A stretch of DNA of 41,492 bases from Candidatus Enterousia excrementavium (GTDB taxonomy: Bacteria > Pseudomonadota > Alphaproteobacteria > Rs-D84). Location: NCBI GenBank assembly GCA_017694175.1, contig JADINE010000028.1, positions 1 to 41,492 on the forward strand, written 5' to 3'. This document shows positions 12,598-41,283 of the stretch, piece by piece (the first letter of the stretch is position 1; each line of letters starts with the position of its first letter). The notes under the pieces were generated by a model that saw only the letters and a list, made by a program, of their open reading frames with translations, was not told where the DNA came from and searched no databases. The translations under genes were made by a program, and so were the position numbers.

Positions 12598-12628
12598 TAA
12601 AAAAATCCGTCATTTGACGGATTTTTTA
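12598..12628. terminator. Bidirectional terminator between secG and the convergent glycosyltransferase gene
   Basis: ATCCGTCA/TGACGGAT hairpin flanked by an A-run on the 5' side and a T-run on the 3' side. Confidence 0.75.
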
Positions 12629-13414
12629 TTTTGCACGCACATGATTTTTCAAAAAGTTTTCCCGGTTTGCACGCTTTGGAATAAACAAACTTATAAATTT
12701 GCCCACCATATATGGCCATTCAAAATGCTTTTTGCCATGGTTATGGTTGCTGTTGTGCACTAATGAAAAATCGCCGTTGTGAAAATGTATGCACGGGGTG
12801 TCGTATAAATACGTTATTGGCACATGGTGCAACCAACATGCATAGTTAAACGATAATTGATCGCGACGTGAATAATTTTCAATCATATTCCACCAAGTAC
12901 GCAAAGCATCTGACATACGATTATGTTGGCGGAACATGATATTATTTTCTGTCAACCCGAAATGTTGCGGATATTTTTCTTGTTTTAACAAATTCATTTC
13001 AGCATCAACCAGTTCCGGATTATCATATCCCAGAATTTTAATTGCTTCTGCTTCGTCGTATGCACAGTCCCGCTGGGGATGTTTTGGCGCAGCCAGCACA
13101 ACATCTTTGGTCATATATGAATCCGCCATTTGAAAAATATGATTATTGTTTATGGTAATGTTGCCATCAACCCACAAACTGGCATCGTAATCAGGAAACA
13201 ATAAATCTGCATTTACCTTGTGCCAACGCGAATTACGAATATTATCCAATTTATCAAACGCCAGCGGGCGAATTTGCCAATGCCCAACACGACCCTGGGC
13301 AATTAATTCGGGATTGTCTGTAAAATAAACATAATCCCATCCCTCGGCGATATATTTGTGCAAGTTAATGTTATCATACCCACCTGTAACACAAGAATAT
13401 ACAACGCGTTTCAT
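12626..13414 (-). CDS. Glycosyltransferase-like protein (DUF616 / TOD1-MUCI70-like)
   Basis: N-terminus MKRVVYSCVTGGYDNI and ...YFTDNPE resemble the DUF616 family signature, from memory. There is no signal peptide. Confidence 0.5.
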   Translation of the reverse strand: MKRVVYSCVTGGYDNINLHKYIAEGWDYVYFTDNPELIAQGRVGHWQIRPLAFDKLDNIRNSRWHKVNADLLFPDYDASLWVDGNITINNNHIFQMADSYMTKDVVLAAPKHPQRDCAYDEAEAIKILGYDNPELVDAEMNLLKQEKYPQHFGLTENNIMFRQHNRMSDALRTWWNMIENYSRRDQLSFNYACWLHHVPITYLYDTPCIHFHNGDFSLVHNSNHNHGKKHFEWPYMVGKFISLFIPKRANRENFLKNHVRAK

Positions 13415-25241: not shown

Positions 25242-25880
25242 ATGAACAAATATATGAATAAGTTTTTCTGTATGATTGCGGCCACAGTCGCATCATATGC
25301 GGTAAATATAGTATACAACCTGCACAGCGCATTCGCAGTCATATGGGAAACAGGCCAGGGCTGCGACGTATTTTATGTTACACGAACAAATACTATGTAC
25401 CTATCCACCACATGTACCAGGAGTTGTTCAACAGCACATTTCTATCTTAACATAATAACCCACTCTATGGAACGTACGTTACCGTCTGGGTATTCCAGAC
25501 TTGGATGCACATCGTACAACAGTGAATATTATTATGGCGGATGGTCATCTGCGGGTGCCACATGTTCATATGGTTCAACAGAGTTAATGTATTCACGCCC
25601 CAATGCCGTTTTTAAAACATTTGATTGCGGTACAGCAAAATGGTGCGATGGTGCCGGCTGGGTGGAAGTTCGTTGTAACACCGCCGGTAATGCCGGGTAT
25701 ATTTCTGGACCGTCTGGGTGTAATTGCTGCCCGGGTGCAATGTTGGGCGACGGCAGTTACAATGTATATGCGGACTATGATGCCAGAGCCGCGGCTGATT
25801 GCTATATAGTTGGGGAAATTAGAGACGAAACAGGTCTGTTTCAATACACAGACGATAACAGATGTTATTACGCTTCCTGA
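25242..25880 (+). CDS. Secreted cysteine-, tyrosine- and glycine-rich protein (family member 1), unknown function
   Basis: Signal-like N-terminus ending SAFA. 18 Cys. The C-terminal module CxxCPG...DCYI...DETGLFQYT...CYYAS-stop is shared with the fragment at 35552-35764. GGGGGG lies upstream of the ATG. Confidence 0.6.
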   Translation: MNKYMNKFFCMIAATVASYAVNIVYNLHSAFAVIWETGQGCDVFYVTRTNTMYLSTTCTRSCSTAHFYLNIITHSMERTLPSGYSRLGCTSYNSEYYYGGWSSAGATCSYGSTELMYSRPNAVFKTFDCGTAKWCDGAGWVEVRCNTAGNAGYISGPSGCNCCPGAMLGDGSYNVYADYDARAAADCYIVGEIRDETGLFQYTDDNRCYYAS

Positions 25881-25932: not shown

Positions 25933-27975
25933 ATGGTATTGCAATCTGTAAAAAAATTACTGGTTCTATATTATAAAACACGTAATGCAATTGGTCGTTG
26001 GCGGCTTGTGCGATACATAAGTTTTTGGCGGCACTTTTACCGCATACGTAAATTGGGGGTGCCGGTTATGACCTTGCGCATGGCGGCCAAGCACGGCATT
26101 CACGATATTTACCATTTGAACAAGGGGGTTGGCGACGGATTGGTTTTTGCCGGTGTCGCGCGCGAGTATTATAAAAAAACAGGCGTGCGTCCGTTGCTGT
26201 ATGTGCCACAGTGGAACGTATTTCGTAATTGTGATTTTTGCTGGTATTTGTTCGATTGGCGTTTGTTGCCTGAAAATGTAAAGGGCGCCCAACATACCAT
26301 GGATGTTTTTTACATATTTTATAACTTGCAATTAAGTGGCCACCGGTTAAAAGCGCGCAAAAATTTCGAATTTAATTTAAAGCCTTTGGAATACCTTAAA
26401 AACGCATATGTTTGTGGGAACATATTCACAAAATTGTTCGGCGGTTTTCCTATGCGCGGGCAAATGATGCAGTGGGTTGCAAATCGCATGGATTTAACCG
26501 GGGAAATAAATGTAAAACCAGAAATACGGCTTACACAATATGAAAAGGATTTCGGTAAATTTGCCAAAGGAAAAATAGTTATCAAATGTGGTGGCAATGG
26601 CCCATATAAATACCTTTTGCCTAAAATCGCCCAGGGCATTATTGATGAATTAAAGGGCGAATATGAATTTTTACAAATTGGTGATTTTGATGATCCTGTA
26701 TTAAATGGTGCGGAACAGTTGTTTAAATTAAACCTGCGCGAATTTGCCGGTGTTTTAACTCATGCGCGCATGTTCGTTGGCGCGATTGGTGGAATGATGC
26801 ATCTGGCGCGTGCGGTTGATTGCCCGGCTGTAATTTTGCACGGATGTGAACACGATGATTTTTATTATCCATCGCAACGCAAAGTTTTTTCCGAAAACAG
26901 ATGCATGTTATGTGTGCATCGCTGTTGGTGGCCCGACAAAGATGATGAACGTCGTTGCCCAAACCGTTATCGTTGCATAGTTGACTTTGATGTTAAACGC
27001 GTTGCAAAAATTATTCGTGAAGAAATGAAAAAGCCGCGCGAAATGGCGGCTGCGCCTGATTTGTTCAAATGTGTTGGCCATATTGTTGATTGCAACAGTT
27101 CGATGAATTGGTGGATGAATTTGGATGATTTTATCACTGATTTTGCGTGGCCGACCCAGGCGGACGAATGCCGCACTGATGGGTTGTATTCACAATCTTT
27201 TGATTATACTGCCGTCCGTCCGGATTACAGCAAATACGCCATTACACAAATGTTGGACGAGCCTGTAAATGTTGGTGCGATGATTGATGGCATGGAATAT
27301 GTAAATAAATTCGCATCTGATAATCCATTTGTAATTCGTTTACAACCGCGCCCATCTTATTTCGCATACGTTGCCAAAATTGCAGACATGCAAAAACAAT
27401 GGACGGCCGAGTGGCATAAATTGGAACCTGTGGATGATATTAAATATTGGCGTAATGAAACCAAACCGAAACCAGAATATGCCACACTGGAAGGTTACGC
27501 CCGTGCAAACCACATGATGAATTTTTTCTTGTGGCATACCGAAGATACAGCGCGTCGCCGTGATGTGCCGGATTCTGTGATTGCAGACGCCAAACATAAA
27601 ATTGATAATTACAATCAATTGCGCAATGATTTTGCAGAAAAAATGGATGAAACAATGATTCAAATTTTGGGGCCTGCGTTGCCCGGCGCGTTCAAAGCGC
27701 CACTGAACACAGAATCATTGGGCATGGTTTTGGACAGATTATCGATTTTGGCGCTTAAAATGTATCATATGGAAGAACAATCTCGTAAACGTGAAAATCG
27801 TCAAAAATGTTTGGAAAAATTAAAGGTGTTACAACAGCAGCGTTTGGAATTGCTGGAAGCGACAAAATATCTTTTGGTTGATTTTATGAATGGTTCGCGT
27901 CAACCACGTGCGTATTACCAACATAAAATGTACAACGATCCAAAATTGAATCCGGAATTATCCGGCCGAAAATAA
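25933..27975 (+). CDS. GT9-like (heptosyltransferase-fold) glycosyltransferase fused to a C-terminal DUF4254-like domain
   Basis: GT-B C-lobe-like region GGNGPYKYL...GAIGGMMHLARAVDCPAVILHG, followed by the GT9-typical Cys cluster CMLCVHRC...C.....C. The C-terminus FFLWHTEDTARRRD...KHKIDNYNQLRND...TESLGMVLDRLSILALKMYHMEEQ resembles DUF4254, from memory. Confidence 0.6.
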   Translation: MVLQSVKKLLVLYYKTRNAIGRWRLVRYISFWRHFYRIRKLGVPVMTLRMAAKHGIHDIYHLNKGVGDGLVFAGVAREYYKKTGVRPLLYVPQWNVFRNCDFCWYLFDWRLLPENVKGAQHTMDVFYIFYNLQLSGHRLKARKNFEFNLKPLEYLKNAYVCGNIFTKLFGGFPMRGQMMQWVANRMDLTGEINVKPEIRLTQYEKDFGKFAKGKIVIKCGGNGPYKYLLPKIAQGIIDELKGEYEFLQIGDFDDPVLNGAEQLFKLNLREFAGVLTHARMFVGAIGGMMHLARAVDCPAVILHGCEHDDFYYPSQRKVFSENRCMLCVHRCWWPDKDDERRCPNRYRCIVDFDVKRVAKIIREEMKKPREMAAAPDLFKCVGHIVDCNSSMNWWMNLDDFITDFAWPTQADECRTDGLYSQSFDYTAVRPDYSKYAITQMLDEPVNVGAMIDGMEYVNKFASDNPFVIRLQPRPSYFAYVAKIADMQKQWTAEWHKLEPVDDIKYWRNETKPKPEYATLEGYARANHMMNFFLWHTEDTARRRDVPDSVIADAKHKIDNYNQLRNDFAEKMDETMIQILGPALPGAFKAPLNTESLGMVLDRLSILALKMYHMEEQSRKRENRQKCLEKLKVLQQQRLELLEATKYLLVDFMNGSRQPRAYYQHKMYNDPKLNPELSGRK

Positions 27976-31164: not shown

Positions 31165-31281
31165 AAATACGTCAATGGGTGTTCCATTGATGGGGTGTGA
31201 CTACCCGAATATCAGCGTCGGAATACGCGCCTGTGGTGCGCCTTGGCGTGCTGCTGTGCCGCGGATTAAGACGATAAACGG

Positions 31282-31387
31282 CTCCTGGCATTTGGTCAGG
31301 AGGGTCGTGAATATCCAATAAGCGGCACAATTTCTGATAGTTGTAGTCAACCTCCTGACCACCAAAATTTTTTGGTGGCTCTTTTTT
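31282..31387 (+). promoter_or_regulatory. Candidate cis-regulatory leader RNA, copy A (switch helix, 67-nt stem-loop, intrinsic terminator)
   Basis: CTCCTG (31282-87) can pair with CAGGAG (31297-302). Alternatively GGTCAGGAGG (31294-303) pairs with CCTCCTGACC (31351-360). The terminator CCACCAAA/TTTGGTGG plus CTCTTTTTT spans 31359-31387 and ends 23 nt before the ATG. It is homologous to 35935-36037. Confidence 0.6.
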
Positions 31388-31410
31388 GCAAAAAACAACA
31401 GGGGGCCTTG

Positions 31411-32223
31411 ATGAATAAAATTTTGTGTATACTTATGATGATACTGCTTGTACCAACACCATCGTTTGCACGGATAAAGTTGCGTGCCGGGGATAATAAT
31501 CGATGTTTTGTTAATGTAAAAGACACAAACCAGTTTTGGTATTGTGGCACCCAGGATTCAACGTGTGCCGGTAAAAAATTGCGTAAATATCATAAAAGAT
31601 GGTGGCAATACCATGGTGAAGGCTTTGACTCAGGGGAGGGGCGACATTTTTGGTGCTGTGGCGGGTCCACCACGGCCCAGGGGCATTATGTTGAAACCTG
31701 GGACCCCTTTTACAGTCGCGAAACTGTAACGGTTGATTTGCCAAATGGCACATGCACATATGAAAGAATCACAAATGTTTGTGGCGAAGTTATCGACGAG
31801 CCTTGCACAGAACCAACTGAATGTGATGCCGGCCTGATTTTGCGAAACGGCCAGTGCGTTGCCCCGTGCGATGGCACAACCGCATTTGCCAGCAAAACTT
31901 CGAACGAATGTGTGGAATGTGCAACAACAGCATACCAGGGAATTGACGACAAAACAAACGAATGTGTACGCTGTGATTCAGGCACTCAATTTTTCGACAA
32001 GGAAACAAAAACCTGTGTGTCAAAAACATCCCCGTCGCTTAAAAAAGTGACTGCTGCCACCATGAAAAAGTGTTACGGGTGTCCAAACAGTGATGTGTTC
32101 AAAGAATGTACAACGTTGTTCAGCAAATCTGACACGGAACGACGCGCGGCGGAAAATTACGAACGAATTATTTCGGAATGCTACATAGACGACAGACCAA
32201 CCACCGCCGCATCAGACGAATAA
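31411..32223 (+). CDS. Secreted cysteine-rich protein (family member 2), unknown function
   Basis: Signal peptide MNKILCILMMILLVPTPSFA. 29 Cys, including FWCCGG and EGF/furin-like spacing (CTEPTECDAGLILRNGQCVAPC..., CVECATTAYQG...CVRCDSGTQF...C). AGGGGG lies upstream of the ATG. Confidence 0.6.
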   Translation: MNKILCILMMILLVPTPSFARIKLRAGDNNRCFVNVKDTNQFWYCGTQDSTCAGKKLRKYHKRWWQYHGEGFDSGEGRHFWCCGGSTTAQGHYVETWDPFYSRETVTVDLPNGTCTYERITNVCGEVIDEPCTEPTECDAGLILRNGQCVAPCDGTTAFASKTSNECVECATTAYQGIDDKTNECVRCDSGTQFFDKETKTCVSKTSPSLKKVTAATMKKCYGCPNSDVFKECTTLFSKSDTERRAAENYERIISECYIDDRPTTAASDE

Positions 32224-35551: not shown

Positions 35552-35764
35552 TGTGCCATTGCTACTTTTAGTGTTGATTTACCGCGCGCTGGGTATTATG
35601 GCGATGCAGGGAACTATGGGCGGAATTGCACAAAATGCCCCGGAAGTGGTACATCCGCAGCAGGTTCAACCAGTATTACAGACTGCTATATGCCATCTGG
35701 TTCCACCGGCAGTGATTCCAGCGGCACGTTTATATATACGTCAACTTGTTATTATTCTAATTAA
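35552..35764 (+). pseudogene. Start-less C-terminal fragment of a cysteine-rich family gene
   Basis: This frame reads ...LPRAGYYGDAGNYGRNCTKCPGSGTSAAGSTSITDCYMPSGSTGSDSSGTFIYTSTCYYSN-stop. That is one GYY..C..CP repeat plus the C-terminal module shared with 25242-25880. There is no in-frame ATG, GTG or TTG between the rlpA terminator and the internal Met. Confidence 0.55.
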
Positions 35765-35851: not shown

Positions 35852-35860
35852 TGATATAAT
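35852..35860 (+). promoter_or_regulatory. Candidate extended -10 promoter for leader B
   Basis: TGATATAAT (TGn plus TATAAT) with no convincing -35. An 8-bp inverted repeat GCCACAAA/TTTGTGGC lies just upstream at 35808-35834. Confidence 0.45.
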
Positions 35861-35934
35861 ACACATAACCCGATACAAAAGCATTGGGCCGGGGCGTCGA
35901 AACCCCATCTAACGTGTTCGCAAAGAACAAAAAA

Positions 35935-36037
35935 CTCCAAACCAGGGTTGGAGGGGGTGAATATATTGAATAAGCCCGCTATCTCGTTAGATGTAGTTTC
36001 GAACCTCCAGCCGCTTGAATGTTTCAGCGGTTTTTTT
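35935..36037 (+). promoter_or_regulatory. Candidate cis-regulatory leader RNA, copy B (switch helix, 67-nt stem-loop, intrinsic terminator)
   Basis: CTCCAA (35935-40) can pair with TTGGAG (35948-53). Alternatively GGTTGGAGG (35946-54) pairs with CCTCCAGCC (36004-12). The terminator CCGCT...AGCGG plus TTTTTTT spans 36011-36037 and ends 14 nt before the ATG. It shares the blocks GTGAATAT, AATAAGC, TAGnTGTAGT and AACCTCC with copy A. Confidence 0.6.
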
Positions 36038-36051
36038 AGGGGGATTTTTAC

Positions 36052-38013
36052 ATGTTCTTGCGACGGGCTGTCATTATGTCGTGCGTATTTTTGTTGGTTG
36101 GCTATGTTCAAATTGCCCACGCGGTTACATGTGACGCCAACCAGTATATTGACGGCGATTTTTGCTATACATGCCCGGCAAACGCAACATGCGACGGAAT
36201 AAATTTTACATGTAACGATGGTTGGTTCAAAGACGGAACCGCTTGTGTTCAGTGCTCGGTGACGAATGCGACATGCAGCGGCCCTGACGATTACAGTTGT
36301 TTGCCTGGATACTATGATAACAATGGTGCGTGCAACGTATGCCCCGAAAATGCGTCGTGCGTCGGCGGACACGAAACCTTCCATTGCAATTCTGGGTGGT
36401 ATAAATTCAAACAAACTTGTTATTCATGCACCGGCCATGTTTGCGATGGCGAAACGGTGATAAGTTGCGGCCCAGGTTTTTGGAAATATGGAGATTACTG
36501 TTATCCGTGTAATATGGACATGGAATATTGCCCGGGTGGCACTGATCACAGAATTTGTAATGTTGGCTGGTACAGAGATGGCCAAGGAAATTGCAGGGAG
36601 TGTCCAGCTGGTTATTATTGTCCGCTTGATACAAACTATAATACGATGCACGACCATTGTGCCGCTGGATATTACCGTTCAGGCAACAGTTGCACTAAAT
36701 GTGCCGATGGCGTTGTTTGTCCCGGTGGTATATTGGATGAAATGACGTGCCCCAACGGATTATTTAAACATGATAATGGTCAATGCTTGCCTTATGCACA
36801 GGGCGATTGTGGCATTGCCCCAAATTGTAATCCGGGCTGTTGGGATAACGGCGGCGAATGCGTTAAATGTTCGGTTGAAAATGCAACATGTACAAACGGG
36901 GATGATTTTACATGTAATGCCGGATATTATAACAGTGGCGCGACGTGCGAAATATGCCCCCCAAATTCAGATTGCCCGACCGGCAGTACGCAAATATCCT
37001 GTTTACCGGGATATTATTTGGACGGAAACGAATGCCCGCAATGCGGCAGGGGACCTGTTTATTGCATTGACAATGCAAAATACGATTGCCCTGAATATGT
37101 CCCCGGCAGTTTAACCCCATATTTACCCAGTGGCCATGAAGTAATATACACATCAGGATATCAAGCTATTGACGGCCCAACACAATCTTTGCCTGACAGG
37201 TGTACCATTTCAACCATACAAATTTCCGCACCCCAGGGATTATACGAGAAAAAATGGACTTATTGGCGCAGCACTACAAACGCATACAGTGGTTTTGGGG
37301 CGACGTATTGGTATGCCGCAAAGGCGGGATATTATTTATCGGGCAGTAACTTGGTTAATAATGTGCAATATTATAAGCAAGTCAATCCCTGTACCAACGG
37401 TGCCGATAATTCGTATTACACTGGCCCCGGTTCCCCAGACGGCAATGATTGCCCGTGGGTCTGCAACGATGGATTTTATCGCGATGGCAATGAATGTCTG
37501 ACTTGCCCGCCTGGCATGGAATGTGTTGGCGGGGGTGTTGTATGCCCAATTGGAATGTACGCAGACAAAAATCAATGCTTGCCATGCCCAAATGGGTACA
37601 CAGATGCTCAAAACGACGGGGCACAATCAATTGAATTTTGTTTTAAAAAGTGCGATGGCGGTTCTTATATTGCCGCCGCTGAATCAAATGTGTGTGAAAA
37701 TGTAGGCCCAGGATACTGGATTGGCGAAAATTACACAGGATATGGCGCTGTTGGTACGCGCAATATGTGTGATGGCGGAATGACTACGCTGGGGTATGGT
37801 ATTGGTGCCGATGAACCCACTGATTGTGGCCGCACTTTGCATGTTGGTGACACATCCGTGCATTTACGCAGCGGTCGCCAAACTACGCCTGCGCTGATTG
37901 TGCAATATGAAAACCAAAAATTTTATGGCAATATGGCACAAAACGCCCAGGGACACGTAAAAATTCGGGTTGGCGATGTCACATATTCTGTGTACGACGA
38001 TTCAATGCAATAA
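36052..38013 (+). CDS. Large secreted cysteine-rich repeat protein (family member 3) with eukaryote-like furin/ephrin-receptor/VSP-like repeats
   Basis: Signal peptide MFLRRAVIMSCVFLLVGYVQIAHA. It has more than 70 Cys. The unit C-x2-C-[PS]-x-N-[AS]-x-C-x-G....C..G[WY][YF]..G..C recurs (CYTCPANATC, CVQCSVTNATC, CNVCPENASC, CVKCSVENATC, CEICPPNSDC). The last ~60 aa contain no Cys. Confidence 0.7.
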   Translation: MFLRRAVIMSCVFLLVGYVQIAHAVTCDANQYIDGDFCYTCPANATCDGINFTCNDGWFKDGTACVQCSVTNATCSGPDDYSCLPGYYDNNGACNVCPENASCVGGHETFHCNSGWYKFKQTCYSCTGHVCDGETVISCGPGFWKYGDYCYPCNMDMEYCPGGTDHRICNVGWYRDGQGNCRECPAGYYCPLDTNYNTMHDHCAAGYYRSGNSCTKCADGVVCPGGILDEMTCPNGLFKHDNGQCLPYAQGDCGIAPNCNPGCWDNGGECVKCSVENATCTNGDDFTCNAGYYNSGATCEICPPNSDCPTGSTQISCLPGYYLDGNECPQCGRGPVYCIDNAKYDCPEYVPGSLTPYLPSGHEVIYTSGYQAIDGPTQSLPDRCTISTIQISAPQGLYEKKWTYWRSTTNAYSGFGATYWYAAKAGYYLSGSNLVNNVQYYKQVNPCTNGADNSYYTGPGSPDGNDCPWVCNDGFYRDGNECLTCPPGMECVGGGVVCPIGMYADKNQCLPCPNGYTDAQNDGAQSIEFCFKKCDGGSYIAAAESNVCENVGPGYWIGENYTGYGAVGTRNMCDGGMTTLGYGIGADEPTDCGRTLHVGDTSVHLRSGRQTTPALIVQYENQKFYGNMAQNAQGHVKIRVGDVTYSVYDDSMQ

Positions 38014-38839: not shown

Positions 38840-39733
38840 ATGGACAAAACATATTCAGGATTTATTGCAATTGTTGGCCCAACAAATGCGGGCAAAAGTA
38901 CACTGTTAAACCAAATCATGGGACGTAAAGTTTCCATCGTTTCGCACAAAGTGCAAACGACGCGTACAAACCTGCGGGCGGTAAAAATGGTGGGCAATCG
39001 GCAATTGATTTTTGTCGATACGCCGGGCATTTTCCGCCCAGCACGCCGATTGGACAGGGCTATGGTTGGTGCTGCAATGGATGCAACGGGTGATGCAGAT
39101 GCAATTTTATTGGTGATTGATGCGCAAAAGGGCATAACCGGCACCGTGCGCGGATTGGTTGAAAAAATCCGCAACCATAAAAATTTGTTTGTTGCCTTGA
39201 ACAAGGTTGACGCCGTATCAAAGCCTGATTTATTGCCAATTACTGCGGAAATAAATGAAATTGCACATCCGCGCGATATTTTTATGATTTCGGCGTTAAA
39301 AAACGATGGCGTGGATGAAATGCTGGGCGCGTTGGCGGCCGTTATGCCGGCCGGGCCTTATTTATTTGAAGCGCACGACGCAACGGATGTGCCGGATAAT
39401 TTATATTTGGCGGAATTGACGCGCGAAAAGATTTATAAATATATTCACCAGGAATTGCCATATCATATCAATGTGGTGACTGAACGGGTTGAAGTTGCAG
39501 ATGATGGTGTTTTGGATATATATCAAAAAATCGCAGTGCGCAGCGATGCACATAAAAAAATAGTTATCGGACGTGGTGGCGCACAATTAAAGAAAATTGG
39601 CACCGCCGCCCGACATGATATTCAAGACCAATGGGGCGTAAATGCGCGCCTGCATTTGTTCGTGCGCGTTGAACCAAATTGGGAAGATATGGCCGAAAAT
39701 TACACGGACCAGGGTTTGGAATTTAAGAAATAA
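38840..39733 (+). CDS. era: GTPase Era
   Basis: G1 GPTNAGKSTLLN, G3 DTPG, G4 NKVD and a C-terminal KH domain (VIGRGGAQLKKIG). The start is at MDKTYSGF, preceded by GGGGG. Confidence 0.92.
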   Translation: MDKTYSGFIAIVGPTNAGKSTLLNQIMGRKVSIVSHKVQTTRTNLRAVKMVGNRQLIFVDTPGIFRPARRLDRAMVGAAMDATGDADAILLVIDAQKGITGTVRGLVEKIRNHKNLFVALNKVDAVSKPDLLPITAEINEIAHPRDIFMISALKNDGVDEMLGALAAVMPAGPYLFEAHDATDVPDNLYLAELTREKIYKYIHQELPYHINVVTERVEVADDGVLDIYQKIAVRSDAHKKIVIGRGGAQLKKIGTAARHDIQDQWGVNARLHLFVRVEPNWEDMAENYTDQGLEFKK

Positions 39734-41283
39734 TGTTACATACTTCTGATTTTGATTTTGAATTACCACCCGAATTAATCGCGTCGCACCCACTGCAACA
39801 ACGCGACGCCTCGCGCATGTTGGTGGTAATGCCGTCGCATTCTGGCACATGGGACAATGCGGTCAGAGATACCGCCAATTATAAAACATTGCCATTTAAT
39901 CCAAAGCTGTTGAACCGTGCCCGCGAATTGCGCAAGGCAGGCAGTTTGCCAGAAGCGTTATTATGGCGCGAAATCAGTGGCAAGAAATTAAACGGATTGG
40001 ATTTTGAGCGTCAAAAAATAATTGGAAATTATATTGTCGATTTTTTTTGTGCGTCAAATTTAATTGTTGTTGAAATAGATGATAAATCCACACACGACAA
40101 TAAATGGAAATATGATGAAAAGCGTGACGAATACTTGCGCGGATTGGGATTGACAGTAATACATATTGCCGCATCAGACGTGTTAAAAAATCCTCACGAC
40201 GTCTTTGTCGGGCTCTCTAACCACCCCGCCTTTCAGGCACCCCTCCAACGGAGGAGAACTGGGCCCGCGACCGATGATACCAAGTTCCCCTCTGCGGAGG
40301 GGTGGCCGCAGGCCGGGGTGGTCAGTGGCGATAATGTCACACTGGCGGACAAGCATATCCGCAATTTTGTGGATTATCTGCAACCGGGCGATGTGGTTGT
40401 GTTTAATAATTCACGTGTAATTCCGGCGCGTTTTGATGCTGCGGATTCCCGTGGCGCGTCGCATGAAATAACATTGCACACGGCCGAAAATAATCGTGTT
40501 TGGTGGGGGCTGTGCAAAAAATTTAATAAAATTCCGTTGGGCGAAATTCTGACGCTGGACGATGGCACAACCGTGCGCGTGTTGGATAAAAACGACGACA
40601 GCGGATTAAAATTGGAATTTCTGTGCGATAATATTTTCGCAGTGTTGGACGCAGTGGGTAAAATGCCGTTGCCACCGTATATGAAGCGCGAAGCGGAAAC
40701 ATCCGACCGCGAACGTTATCAAACGGTGTATGCAGACCCCATCGGTTCGATGGCGGCACCCACGGCCGGATTGCATTTTACGCCTGAATTAATGGATGAA
40801 ATTGAACGCCGTGGCGCAAAAATAGTAAAAATAACCCTGCACGTTGGCGCGGGCACATGGATGCCGGTAAAAACAGAAAATTTGAACGAACATAAAATGC
40901 ACAGTGAATGGTGCTGTATCACACCCGCCCAGGCTGATATAATTAACAACGCAAAACGTGTAATCGCGGTTGGAACAACGTCTATGCGCACGCTGGAAAG
41001 TGCGGCAATGGATAACTGTAATTTGCCGGAATTTGCGCGTTGCAAACGCGTTTCGCCAATTTGTCGCAGCACCGATATTTTTATCACGCCGGGATATAAG
41101 TTTCGTGCAGTTGATGTACTGCTGACGAATTTTCATTTACCAAAATCAACATTGTTTATGTTGGTGTCGGCGTTCAGTGGCCTGGACGAAATGAAGACTG
41201 CGTATGCGCATGCGGTCGCCGAAAAATATCGCTTTTTTTCATACGGCGATTGCTGTTTGTTATTCAAAAAGGAAAATGCGTAA
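39733..41283 (+). CDS. queA: S-adenosylmethionine:tRNA ribosyltransferase-isomerase QueA, carrying an in-frame DUF559 insertion
   Basis: QueA blocks are present: DFDFELPPELIA, PGDVVVFNNSRVIPAR, PLPPYM, YQTVYA, AAPTAGLHFT, VGTTSMRTLES, TNFHLPKSTL and YRFFSYGD. It is 516 aa against about 350 aa for typical QueA. The ATG overlaps the era stop (TAATG). Confidence 0.9.
   Translation: MLHTSDFDFELPPELIASHPLQQRDASRMLVVMPSHSGTWDNAVRDTANYKTLPFNPKLLNRARELRKAGSLPEALLWREISGKKLNGLDFERQKIIGNYIVDFFCASNLIVVEIDDKSTHDNKWKYDEKRDEYLRGLGLTVIHIAASDVLKNPHDVFVGLSNHPAFQAPLQRRRTGPATDDTKFPSAEGWPQAGVVSGDNVTLADKHIRNFVDYLQPGDVVVFNNSRVIPARFDAADSRGASHEITLHTAENNRVWWGLCKKFNKIPLGEILTLDDGTTVRVLDKNDDSGLKLEFLCDNIFAVLDAVGKMPLPPYMKREAETSDRERYQTVYADPIGSMAAPTAGLHFTPELMDEIERRGAKIVKITLHVGAGTWMPVKTENLNEHKMHSEWCCITPAQADIINNAKRVIAVGTTSMRTLESAAMDNCNLPEFARCKRVSPICRSTDIFITPGYKFRAVDVLLTNFHLPKSTLFMLVSAFSGLDEMKTAYAHAVAEKYRFFSYGDCCLLFKKENA
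39865..40323 (+). other. In-frame DUF559 (Vsr-like very-short-patch endonuclease fold) domain insertion within queA
   Basis: LNRARELRKAGSLPEALLWREI...LDFERQKIIGNYIVDFFCASNLIVVEIDD..H......YDEKRDEYLRGLGLTVIHIAASDVL matches the DUF559 pattern. It is followed by a locally GC-rich tail with hairpins (CCTCC-AAC-GGAGG, CCCCTC-TGCG-GAGGGG) of the kind seen at DUF559 gene ends. Confidence 0.7.

Follow-up and report, generated by a model that had tools for sequence, protein, structure and literature searches.

The window, i.e., the whole stretch of 41,492 nucleotides (nt) analyzed here, comes from Candidatus Enterousia excrementavium and contains at 36052..38013 (forward strand, +) an open reading frame (ORF) for a cysteine-rich, putatively exported protein of 653 amino acids (aa). 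The frame starts with ATG, and its stop (a TAA-type codon) is included in the coordinates. The protein contains 61 Cys (9.3%) and twelve CxxC motifs. It consists, from the N- to the C-terminus, of a signal peptide, eleven tandem Cys-rich repeats, a beta-sandwich, a linker with two further repeats and a C-terminal module; the mean predicted local distance difference test (pLDDT) of the full-length AlphaFold2 (AF2) model is 77.6. A promoter and a structured leader RNA precede the gene. No NCBIfam model matches the protein or the relic of another gene found upstream.

Architecture of the protein

Residues 1-24 (36052..36123, +) are predicted to be a Sec signal peptide, in agreement with the original prediction. 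In the N-terminus (MFLRRAVIMSCVFLLVGYVQIAHA, followed by VTCD), a basic n-region precedes a hydrophobic core and an A-x-A site, with cleavage predicted after A-H-A, and residues 2-16 form a helix in the AF2 model. The sequence of the signal peptide differs among orthologues and is hydrophobic in all of them. Its RR is not kept in orthologues, thus Sec rather than Tat export is likely and the Tat route was ruled out.

About 13 four-Cys repeats of 27-29 aa each were found, eleven in tandem (aa 25-346, 36124..37089, +) and two further on. The tandem array is delimited by Cys spacing, invariant Cys, the AF2 model and fold matches. The Cys-to-Cys distances cycle through 3 / 5-7 / 7-9 / 11 over aa 27-346, and the cycle resumes over aa 467-534. 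Across 23 aligned full-length orthologues, with identities down to 43%, 58 of the 61 Cys never vary. The three others are C11, in the signal peptide, and C253 and C263; the latter, the sole variable pair of the mature protein, are replaced jointly in 6 sequences and thus behave as a bonded pair. Both the repeat pattern and the Cys invariance are far beyond chance. The pLDDT of the eleven repeats is 72-92, and they are predicted to form a disulfide-laddered rod. The protein had been described as made almost entirely of CxxC repeats: the description fits the four-Cys repeats, but not aa 347-446, i.e., a beta-sandwich with a single Cys.

The affinity of the repeats was searched in Pfam, in the Protein Data Bank (PDB) and with Foldseek. 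Three Pfam families, and only these, give hints, all below threshold: TNFR_ELAPOR1_6th (PF23091; 18.4 bits vs. a cut-off of 33.2, in 4 stretches), Ephrin_rec_like (PF07699, formerly GCC2_GCC3; 15.1 bits vs. 23.1, E = 0.021, aa 498-530) and VSP (PF03302; 9.5 bits vs. 31.4, E = 0.56). Precomputed TNFR_ELAPOR1_6th matches are listed for orthologues P0004-P0011. Among proteins that share the C-terminal module, P0102 (65.9 bits), P0092 (46.6) and P0082 (25.0) pass the Ephrin_rec_like threshold, and P0092 passes that of TNFR_ELAPOR1_6th too (46.5 bits). The family profile has a single match among all PDB sequences, i.e., the cysteine-rich domain (CRD) of EphA2 (E = 0.0028). The best Foldseek match of the full-length model is a Chlamydomonas mastigoneme protein (8wa2_E, E = 2.6e-5), followed by ELAPOR1, Eph ectodomains, TNFR1/4-1BB and R-spondin furin repeats. 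For EphA2 CRD, TNFR1 and 4-1BB the E-values are 0.02-0.3 and the template modelling (TM) scores normalized to the target 0.2-0.33; global superposition is low because such rods bend differently.

The unit C-x2-C-P-x-N-A-T-C...C-x2-G-[FY]-[FY] is also present in distant relatives, bacterial and non-bacterial-looking. P0042, P0046 and P0052 are bacterial relatives with this unit on a contig with ordinary bacterial genes. P0043, with the same unit, is a transmembrane receptor kinase, and genes with kelch and kinase domains are found on its contig as well. P0054, which has homologous repeats, spans the membrane once and matches Ephrin_rec_like above threshold (55 bits). From their sequences, the contig of P0043 appears eukaryote-like, and P0043 and P0054 are interpreted as eukaryotic. 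These matches bear out the ephrin-receptor- or furin-like, eukaryote-like kind of the repeats that had been proposed from the sequence. The repeat described as «cysteine-rich repeats», a marker of horizontal gene transfer, in a 2026 preprint was also considered; it is a different repeat, without prokaryotic homologues.

The beta-sandwich (aa 347-446, 37090..37389, +) has seven long strands, one Cys and a pLDDT above 90. It has no PDB neighbour, either by sequence profile or by Foldseek. It is the most variable part of the protein, with a mean pairwise identity of 27% as against 74% for the linker and 53-63% for the blocks of repeats. It is a candidate ligand-binding or antigenic head. The linker, CTNG..NSYYTGPGSP.GNDCPW, and two four-Cys repeats follow it at aa 447-510 (37390..37581, +), as defined by the alignment.

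The C-terminal module (aa 511-653, 37582..38010, +; pLDDT 87-92) was delimited by profile search and has three parts: (i) a Cys-rich unit of about 70 aa, CP.GY..C..C.GG.Y..C..VG.GYW..YG..G.R..C; (ii) the motif GYG.GADE..DCGR; (iii) a six-strand beta domain without Cys, aa 593-653 (nt 37828-38010, pLDDT about 88-92). The last Cys is C592. The terminal beta domain recurs without the preceding ~100 aa in relatives of 249-264 aa, e.g., P0061 and P0062, which consist of a signal peptide, one repeat, a sandwich and this domain. The Cys-free C-terminal ~60 aa are thus a domain of their own, as had been supposed. P0048 and P0060 have two sandwiches each. P0059 has an N-terminus of Listeria-Bacteroides (Flg_new) repeats and shares the last 143 aa at 47% identity. 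The C-terminus of the protein (RVGDVTYSVYDDSMQ, ending in YSVYDDSMQ) is polar, is modelled as beta-strands and has no hydrophobic helix.

A profile of the 143-aa module (alignment A5) was searched against 1.84 billion representative proteins. At least 775 clusters match at E <= 1e-3, 455 at E <= 1e-10 and 188 at E <= 1e-30, and the sizes of the proteins range from 146 to 5452 aa. Among the matches listed that reach the profile end, the terminal beta domain is located at most 20 aa from the C-terminus in 120 of 140 (86%). A constant extension of about 130 aa follows the module in 15 of the 140 listed. The passengers include Flg_new / InlB B-repeats, BspA-like leucine-rich repeats (LRR) and, above the Pfam threshold, Ephrin_rec_like; these are typical surface or adhesin domains. 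The module ends many unrelated, often giant, proteins with signal peptides, thus its sequence distribution points to a sorting or anchoring domain. When Pfam was scanned member by member, weak Ephrin_rec_like matches were obtained and no model of the module; NCBIfam has no model for it either. With the confident model of the C-terminal half, Foldseek gives no PDB neighbour of the module (best E = 0.06, on the Cys-rich part). Against viral structures, the same model gives only local matches, over about 66-70 residues, to uncharacterised gut-phage proteins (probability 0.77-0.99, E 0.1-2.3). Taken together, the sandwich, the module and the leader RNA described below have no described counterpart in the libraries searched.

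The extension that follows the module is ~130-135 aa long in P0072, P0101, P0129, P0144, P0147, P0167, P0174, P0178, P0186 and P0188 and has no detected family. It could be a further sorting or anchor element.

The motif N-A-[ST] had been noticed at a fixed position of the repeats and read as a sequon for N-glycosylation. The fixed position is real: the motif directly precedes the third Cys of the repeat at aa 44, 72, 100 and 277 (repeats 1, 2, 3 and 9). At these sites N-x-[ST] is retained in 23/23, 19/23, 18/23 and 16/23 orthologues, respectively, and an NYT at aa 560 is retained in 21/23. This conservation, together with glycosyltransferase-like genes in the window (GT9 with DUF4254; TOD1/MUCI70-like), would suit a mature protein that is a bacterial N-glycoprotein, i.e., an addition to the surface role discussed below and not an alternative to it. 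On the contrary, the third residue of the sequon is V, L, I, N or Y in other orthologues and homologues, and the same motif is NAL or NAV in P0042 and P0043. PglB-type transferases need D/E at -2. The sites read PANAT, VTNAT, PENAS and VENAT, with P or V at -2, so the extended sequon D/E-X-N-X-S/T is absent at all of them, and no STT3-like gene is present within the window. An Asn and a small residue forming a structural turn before a disulfide Cys seem, from the sequences, to explain the motif at least as well. The retention of N-x-[ST] thus holds, but its use as a glycosylation signal is improbable.

Leader RNA and variation of the gene

Upstream regions of the gene were aligned for the window and four related loci (L001-L004). 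The 190 nt upstream have about 90% identity, despite 59-64% protein identity and a differing context. An extended -10 element (TGATATAAT, 35852..35860, +) is deduced from the consensus TG(A/T)TA(T/C)AAT, which is kept upstream of orthologues. From its position, transcription would start about 5-8 nt downstream.

A structured 5' leader RNA of 155 nt (35889..36043, +) was delimited by a covariance model (R1) and by covariation. A long closing helix, P1, surrounds a multi-stem (three-way) junction, and the loop GGUGAAUAUAUUGAAUAA is invariant. Its 3' end carries a terminator hairpin (36011-36030), a U7 run (36031-36037) and the Shine-Dalgarno sequence AGGGGG (36038-36043), which ends 8 nt before the ATG. 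In the model-guided alignment, 92% of the cells are base-paired vs. 76% in shuffles and 36-46% in slid controls. Both sides have changed in 35 of 49 pairs, and none of 500 shuffles reaches the observed values; a separate count on 12 forward instances gives 27/49 pairs. All 12 forward instances are located upstream of a gene on the same strand, and the G-U pairs fit this strand only. The sequence CCUCC(AA/AG/UG) before the terminator can pair with the 3' strand of P3 (UUGGAGG/CAGGAGG). Both change in concert, therefore the two helices would be mutually exclusive.

A second, divergent copy of the leader is present in the window at 31243..31391 (+) (nhmmer E = 4.8e-6; R1 18 bits, E = 0.009), with concerted CUCCUG / CAGGAGG / CCUCCUG changes. 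Elsewhere, nhmmer and the R1 model found copies in L012 (15969-16130 and 2829-2982, both -), L005 (2165-2317, -), L016 (6491-6651 and 2683-2843, both +) and L018 (1563-1702, +). These precede the genes of an orthologue (P0036), of a secreted Cys-rich protein of 224 aa and of a small secreted protein that has a BspA-like protein after it, as well as three ORFs of about 72 aa in L012, L005 and L018. That of L012 matches Pfam HTH_31, and one in L018 is helix-turn-helix (HTH)-like by eye.

None of the 4227 Rfam families matches the leader at gathering or permissive thresholds (best: sRNA-Xcc1, 24 bits vs. a threshold of 53). Scanning metagenomes for a 15-nt segment of the leader gave 120 loci from soils, lakes and oceans, in none of which the motif was found by covariance model or nhmmer; the pattern is too short. 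A leader peptide encoded in the 5' RNA was discarded, the frame not being conserved in L012. An origin from a repeat of the miniature inverted-repeat transposable element type is unlikely, given compensatory changes within one genome, G-U pairs on one strand only and copies that always face the downstream gene.

To judge from its sequence, the leader looks like an unclassified attenuator or riboswitch-like RNA. It shares with transcription-attenuating riboswitches and leader RNAs a promoter-proximal multi-stem structure, covariation, an invariant loop, an exclusive helix and a terminator just before the ribosome-binding site. It differs from riboswitches in that it has no Rfam family and that the downstream genes encode surface and small HTH proteins, not metabolic ones. 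Since transcription must pass the intrinsic terminator of the leader, expression is probably switched by attenuation, and this RNA could report what controls the expression of the surface protein.

The variation of the protein is concentrated in two cassettes, aa ~120-200 (repeats 4-6) and ~340-450. In the allele pairs or groups P0004/P0008, P0013/P0017 and P0019/P0020/P0023, identity is about 100% in the first ~110 and last ~200 residues and 17-50% in the two cassettes. Three copies (L008-L010) are present in one metagenome-assembled genome (MAG), BRZ_R bin77. Past ~200 bp, their upstream flanks are unrelated. At the nucleotide level their first ~90 codons do not differ at all (100% identity, 0/60 synonymous-site differences), and their cassettes have 46-67% DNA identity. 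The two copies of a second MAG (L005/L006) show the same pattern of identical 5' ends, unrelated flanks and divergent cassettes. Recombination or gene conversion among copies that are under diversifying selection would produce such mosaics of the sequences, as it does in variable surface proteins. A diversity-generating retroelement was set aside, as the cassettes differ throughout and there is no template copy.

L008, L009 and L010 share another upstream region of ~200 bp, 97-98% identical, which has no match to the R1 model. The promoter-leader unit travels with the gene, and it is not the same in all lineages.

The position of the gene is not fixed between species and no synteny is conserved. 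The context of the window is kept in a relative with 96% identity (L139); in a relative with 75% identity the gene is beside an M23 peptidase. The protein of the window is 60-64% identical to those of L001-L003, and neighbouring housekeeping proteins are 85-90% identical.

Ancestry and proposed role

The window carries housekeeping genes of a diderm bacterium (LigA, PBP1, LepB, RNase III, GroEL, TilS, FtsH; also M23 peptidases, BamD, MurJ, RlpA, dCTP deaminase, Era and QueA). Its GroEL has 96% identity to proteins of Candidatus Enterousia, a genus of Alphaproteobacteria. Enterousia belongs to the order Rs-D84 and has genomes under 1 Mb, without amino-acid, nucleotide or lipid biosynthesis, tricarboxylic acid cycle or respiratory chains; it probably depends on other cells in animal guts, as an obligate symbiont or parasite (PMC12306168).

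The GC content of the gene is 0.467 (0.424 at third codon positions), as in neighbouring genes. Its codon usage correlates with that of the neighbours at 0.92, the range among the neighbours themselves being 0.80-0.95. About 40 full-length orthologues were found, from 96% to 43% identity, and the taxon labels, where given, are all Alphaproteobacteria. The scan of species-representative genomes gave ten loci, all in uncultured Alphaproteobacteria/Rickettsiales MAGs. A recent transfer from a eukaryote, which the original prediction had envisaged as horizontal acquisition, is not supported because the codon usage is native and alphaproteobacterial orthologues are many; the module alone is found in hundreds of clusters. 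This is the outcome that the original prediction had itself named as speaking against such an acquisition. The eukaryote-like reading of the sequence is thus partly right: it appears correct for the kind of repeat, not for a recent transfer. The gene belongs to a native, large bacterial family of probable cell-surface proteins with swappable variable segments, i.e., a bacterial case of eukaryote-type Cys-rich repeats that is natively maintained.

For the whole protein, the sole similarities to known families in Pfam, PDB and Foldseek are with Cys-rich proteins of the Eph, TNFR, ELAPOR1 and mastigoneme types. The protein shares with Ephrin_rec_like and the TNFR-like repeats of ELAPOR1 a rod of stacked four-Cys beta-hairpin units with C-x2-C and G-[YFW]-[YF] signatures. 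It differs by the signature C-P-x-N-A-[TS]-C of its unit and by failing both Pfam thresholds; unlike Eph receptors, it is bacterial and has no ligand-binding, FN3, transmembrane or kinase parts.

The variant-specific surface proteins (VSP) of Giardia offer another comparison. In both cases a gut-dwelling, partner-dependent organism has a multigene family of exported CXXC-rich proteins (about 9-12% Cys) with variable Cys-rich regions, a conserved C-terminal end and a presumed role as a protease-resistant coat. However, the Enterousia protein has neither the C-terminal transmembrane helix nor the CRGKA tail of VSP but a soluble, beta-rich module of 143 aa, and it has a central beta-sandwich; expression of one gene at a time is so far a feature of VSP only. 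Anaplasma Msp2/P44, one of the bacterial surface proteins that vary through gene conversion, is also alphaproteobacterial; shared with it are 5' and 3' ends, here identical even at synonymous sites, around a hypervariable interior, and several copies, here per bin. On the other hand Msp2 is a beta-barrel of the outer membrane instead of a Cys-rich rod, the window has no silent truncated cassettes, and recombination is deduced here from mosaics of MAGs alone. The C-terminal domain of type IX secretion system (T9SS) substrates, the anchors of autotransporters and trimeric autotransporters and Slam-dependent barrels are, like the present module, conserved at the extreme C-terminus of unrelated, often giant, proteins with signal peptides. 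Yet there is no match of sequence or fold to them, and the module is too short for a monomeric barrel and lacks a terminal aromatic beta-signal. T9SS is not known in Alphaproteobacteria. The protein resembles, on comparative grounds, a bacterial variable surface protein made from a known kind of eukaryote-type Cys-rich repeat, with a VSP-like and Msp2-like logic; it is not a VSP.

Rs-D84/Enterousia bacteria occur commonly in the guts of animals and humans, probably at the expense of other cells. Although the genome is smaller than 1 Mb, 2 kb of it go to this gene, and in related MAGs proteins that end in the module reach 5452 aa (~16 kb of coding sequence), thus the family is a prime candidate for the contact and coat machinery. 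The reading proposed here, for which confidence is evenly balanced, is that of a disulfide-stabilised, protease-resistant stalk with a hypervariable sandwich, directed to or retained at the surface by the C-terminal module and serving for contact or as a variable coat. The protein would be exported by Sec, and about 30 disulfides would hold the rod on, or extending from, the surface of Candidatus Enterousia, where it would contact a partner or host cell or shield the bacterium in the gut. The eleven repeats of the TNFR/furin/Ephrin-CRD type would be the stiff, protease-resistant stalk and the sandwich the exposed binding or antigenic head. The last ~143 aa would be a family-wide sorting or anchoring module that brings differing passengers to one cellular destination. 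Variation would arise by recombination or gene conversion of the two internal cassettes between copies with identical ends, and transcription would start at the extended -10 element and depend on read-through of the leader and its terminator, i.e., on attenuation. A surface or adhesin role, also suggested by the original prediction, is the best inference from the sequences, in view of the adhesin-type passengers that share the module. The binding head and a new C-terminal sorting signal of diderms are both testable candidates.

Several points weigh against this reading. No outer-membrane translocation or anchoring mechanism was identified. The function is read from sequences and models; neither the module nor the sandwich has a relative in PDB or Pfam, and the roles given to them are therefore guesses. 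What would oxidise the Cys to 30 disulfides is not obvious in an organism that has no respiratory chain. Several copies with conserved ends and a hypervariable interior are present in related MAGs and not in the window, which holds a single copy, tblastn of the protein against its 41 kb finding no partial or silent ones. MAG bins can mix strains, and the «paralogues» could partly be alleles at rearranged loci. Among the contexts compared, no neighbouring gene is conserved.

The protein could instead be a structural part of the periplasm or cell envelope, never exposed at the surface, e.g., one that acts as spacer or scaffold together with the peptidoglycan machinery. The signal peptide without a recognisable outer-membrane export signal is consistent with this, and so are the adjoining envelope genes: murJ-rlpA in the window, L003 and L139, a PBP5-type carboxypeptidase in L015, a SurA-like protein in L016 and an M23 peptidase in L001, L002 and L141. 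This synteny is however not conserved between species, a housekeeping part of the envelope would seldom have hypervariable cassettes and several copies, and the same module ends giant adhesin-type proteins with InlB repeats or BspA-LRR; such a location is unlikely. The twelve CxxC motifs, an anaerobe without a respiratory chain and the lack of a Dsb gene within the window would fit Cys that coordinate metal ions (Zn/Fe), as proposed for the CXXC motifs of Giardia VSP, rather than disulfides. Nevertheless, the four-Cys spacing and the AF2 model fit disulfide ladders of the TNFR/furin type, C253 and C263 are lost together as a bonded pair would be, and the number of Cys in the mature protein, 60, is even, which leaves metal binding very improbable.

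The fold and the weak sequence similarity to EphA2 CRD, TNFR1/4-1BB and ELAPOR1, with homologous repeats in the transmembrane P0043 and P0054 interpreted as eukaryotic, suggest another role: a soluble decoy or effector, i.e., a TNFR/Eph-receptor-like ectodomain acquired from a eukaryote, that mimics the host and binds host or protist ligands. But all of these are matches that disulfide-ladder repeats give in general (E >= 2.6e-5, TM <= 0.33), and none includes a ligand-binding domain. Moreover the codon usage is native, the family is large, old and lineage-wide in bacteria, and any ancient exchange of the repeat with protists may have gone in either direction. For the host mimicry that had been envisaged, nothing specific to TNFR or Eph is seen beyond a generic fold, and a decoy is quite unlikely.

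The surface-stalk reading can be extended, though the extension is speculative and rather doubtful as a whole: Rs-D84/Enterousia would have a Giardia-VSP-like coat of interchangeable Cys-rich proteins, which a C-terminal sorting domain not described before would deliver or anchor and structured leader RNAs of a new class would switch on and off; the repeat would mark an ancient exchange with gut protists. If so, a sorting domain common to hundreds of surface proteins (up to 5452 aa) would imply a new route of secretion or attachment in diderms, and the gut protists that exchanged repeats may be hosts of Rs-D84/Enterousia.

Other genes of the window

A 3' remnant of another secreted Cys-rich gene (CTKCPGSGTSAAGSTSITDCY, ending in CYYSN and a stop) lies at 35553..35764 (+), between the rlpA terminator and its own terminator. 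It is in the same gene neighbourhood as the ORF of the 653-aa protein and is not part of it. Intact relatives of the remnant are present in L016 (2863-3537) and in the window (25242-25880). A further 163 bp of this region are deleted in L139, thus the remnant is a decaying pseudogene.

Two other ORFs with signal peptides, 25242-25880 and 31411-32223 (both +), have 6.6% and 7.8% Cys, respectively, and no Pfam family. The former ends in a tail of the CYYAS type, as the remnant does; the latter directly follows the second copy of the leader. Together with the gene of the 653-aa protein and the remnant, they bring the secreted Cys-rich genes, whole or decayed, to four in 41 kb of a genome under 1 Mb.

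Of the glycosyltransferase-like genes, that at 25933-27975 (+) encodes a protein of 680 aa with a heptosyltransferase-like (GT9) region and a C-terminal DUF4254, and the TOD1/MUCI70-like one is located at 12626-13414 (-). Both may be relevant to surface glycans.

QueA (39733-41283, +) contains an in-frame DUF559 / Vsr-like endonuclease domain at aa ~59-158, which splits the profile between positions ~31 and 32. L139, the 96% relative, has the insertion too, and the orthologue of L003, with 344 aa, lacks it; the inserted endonuclease domain may be a mobile one.

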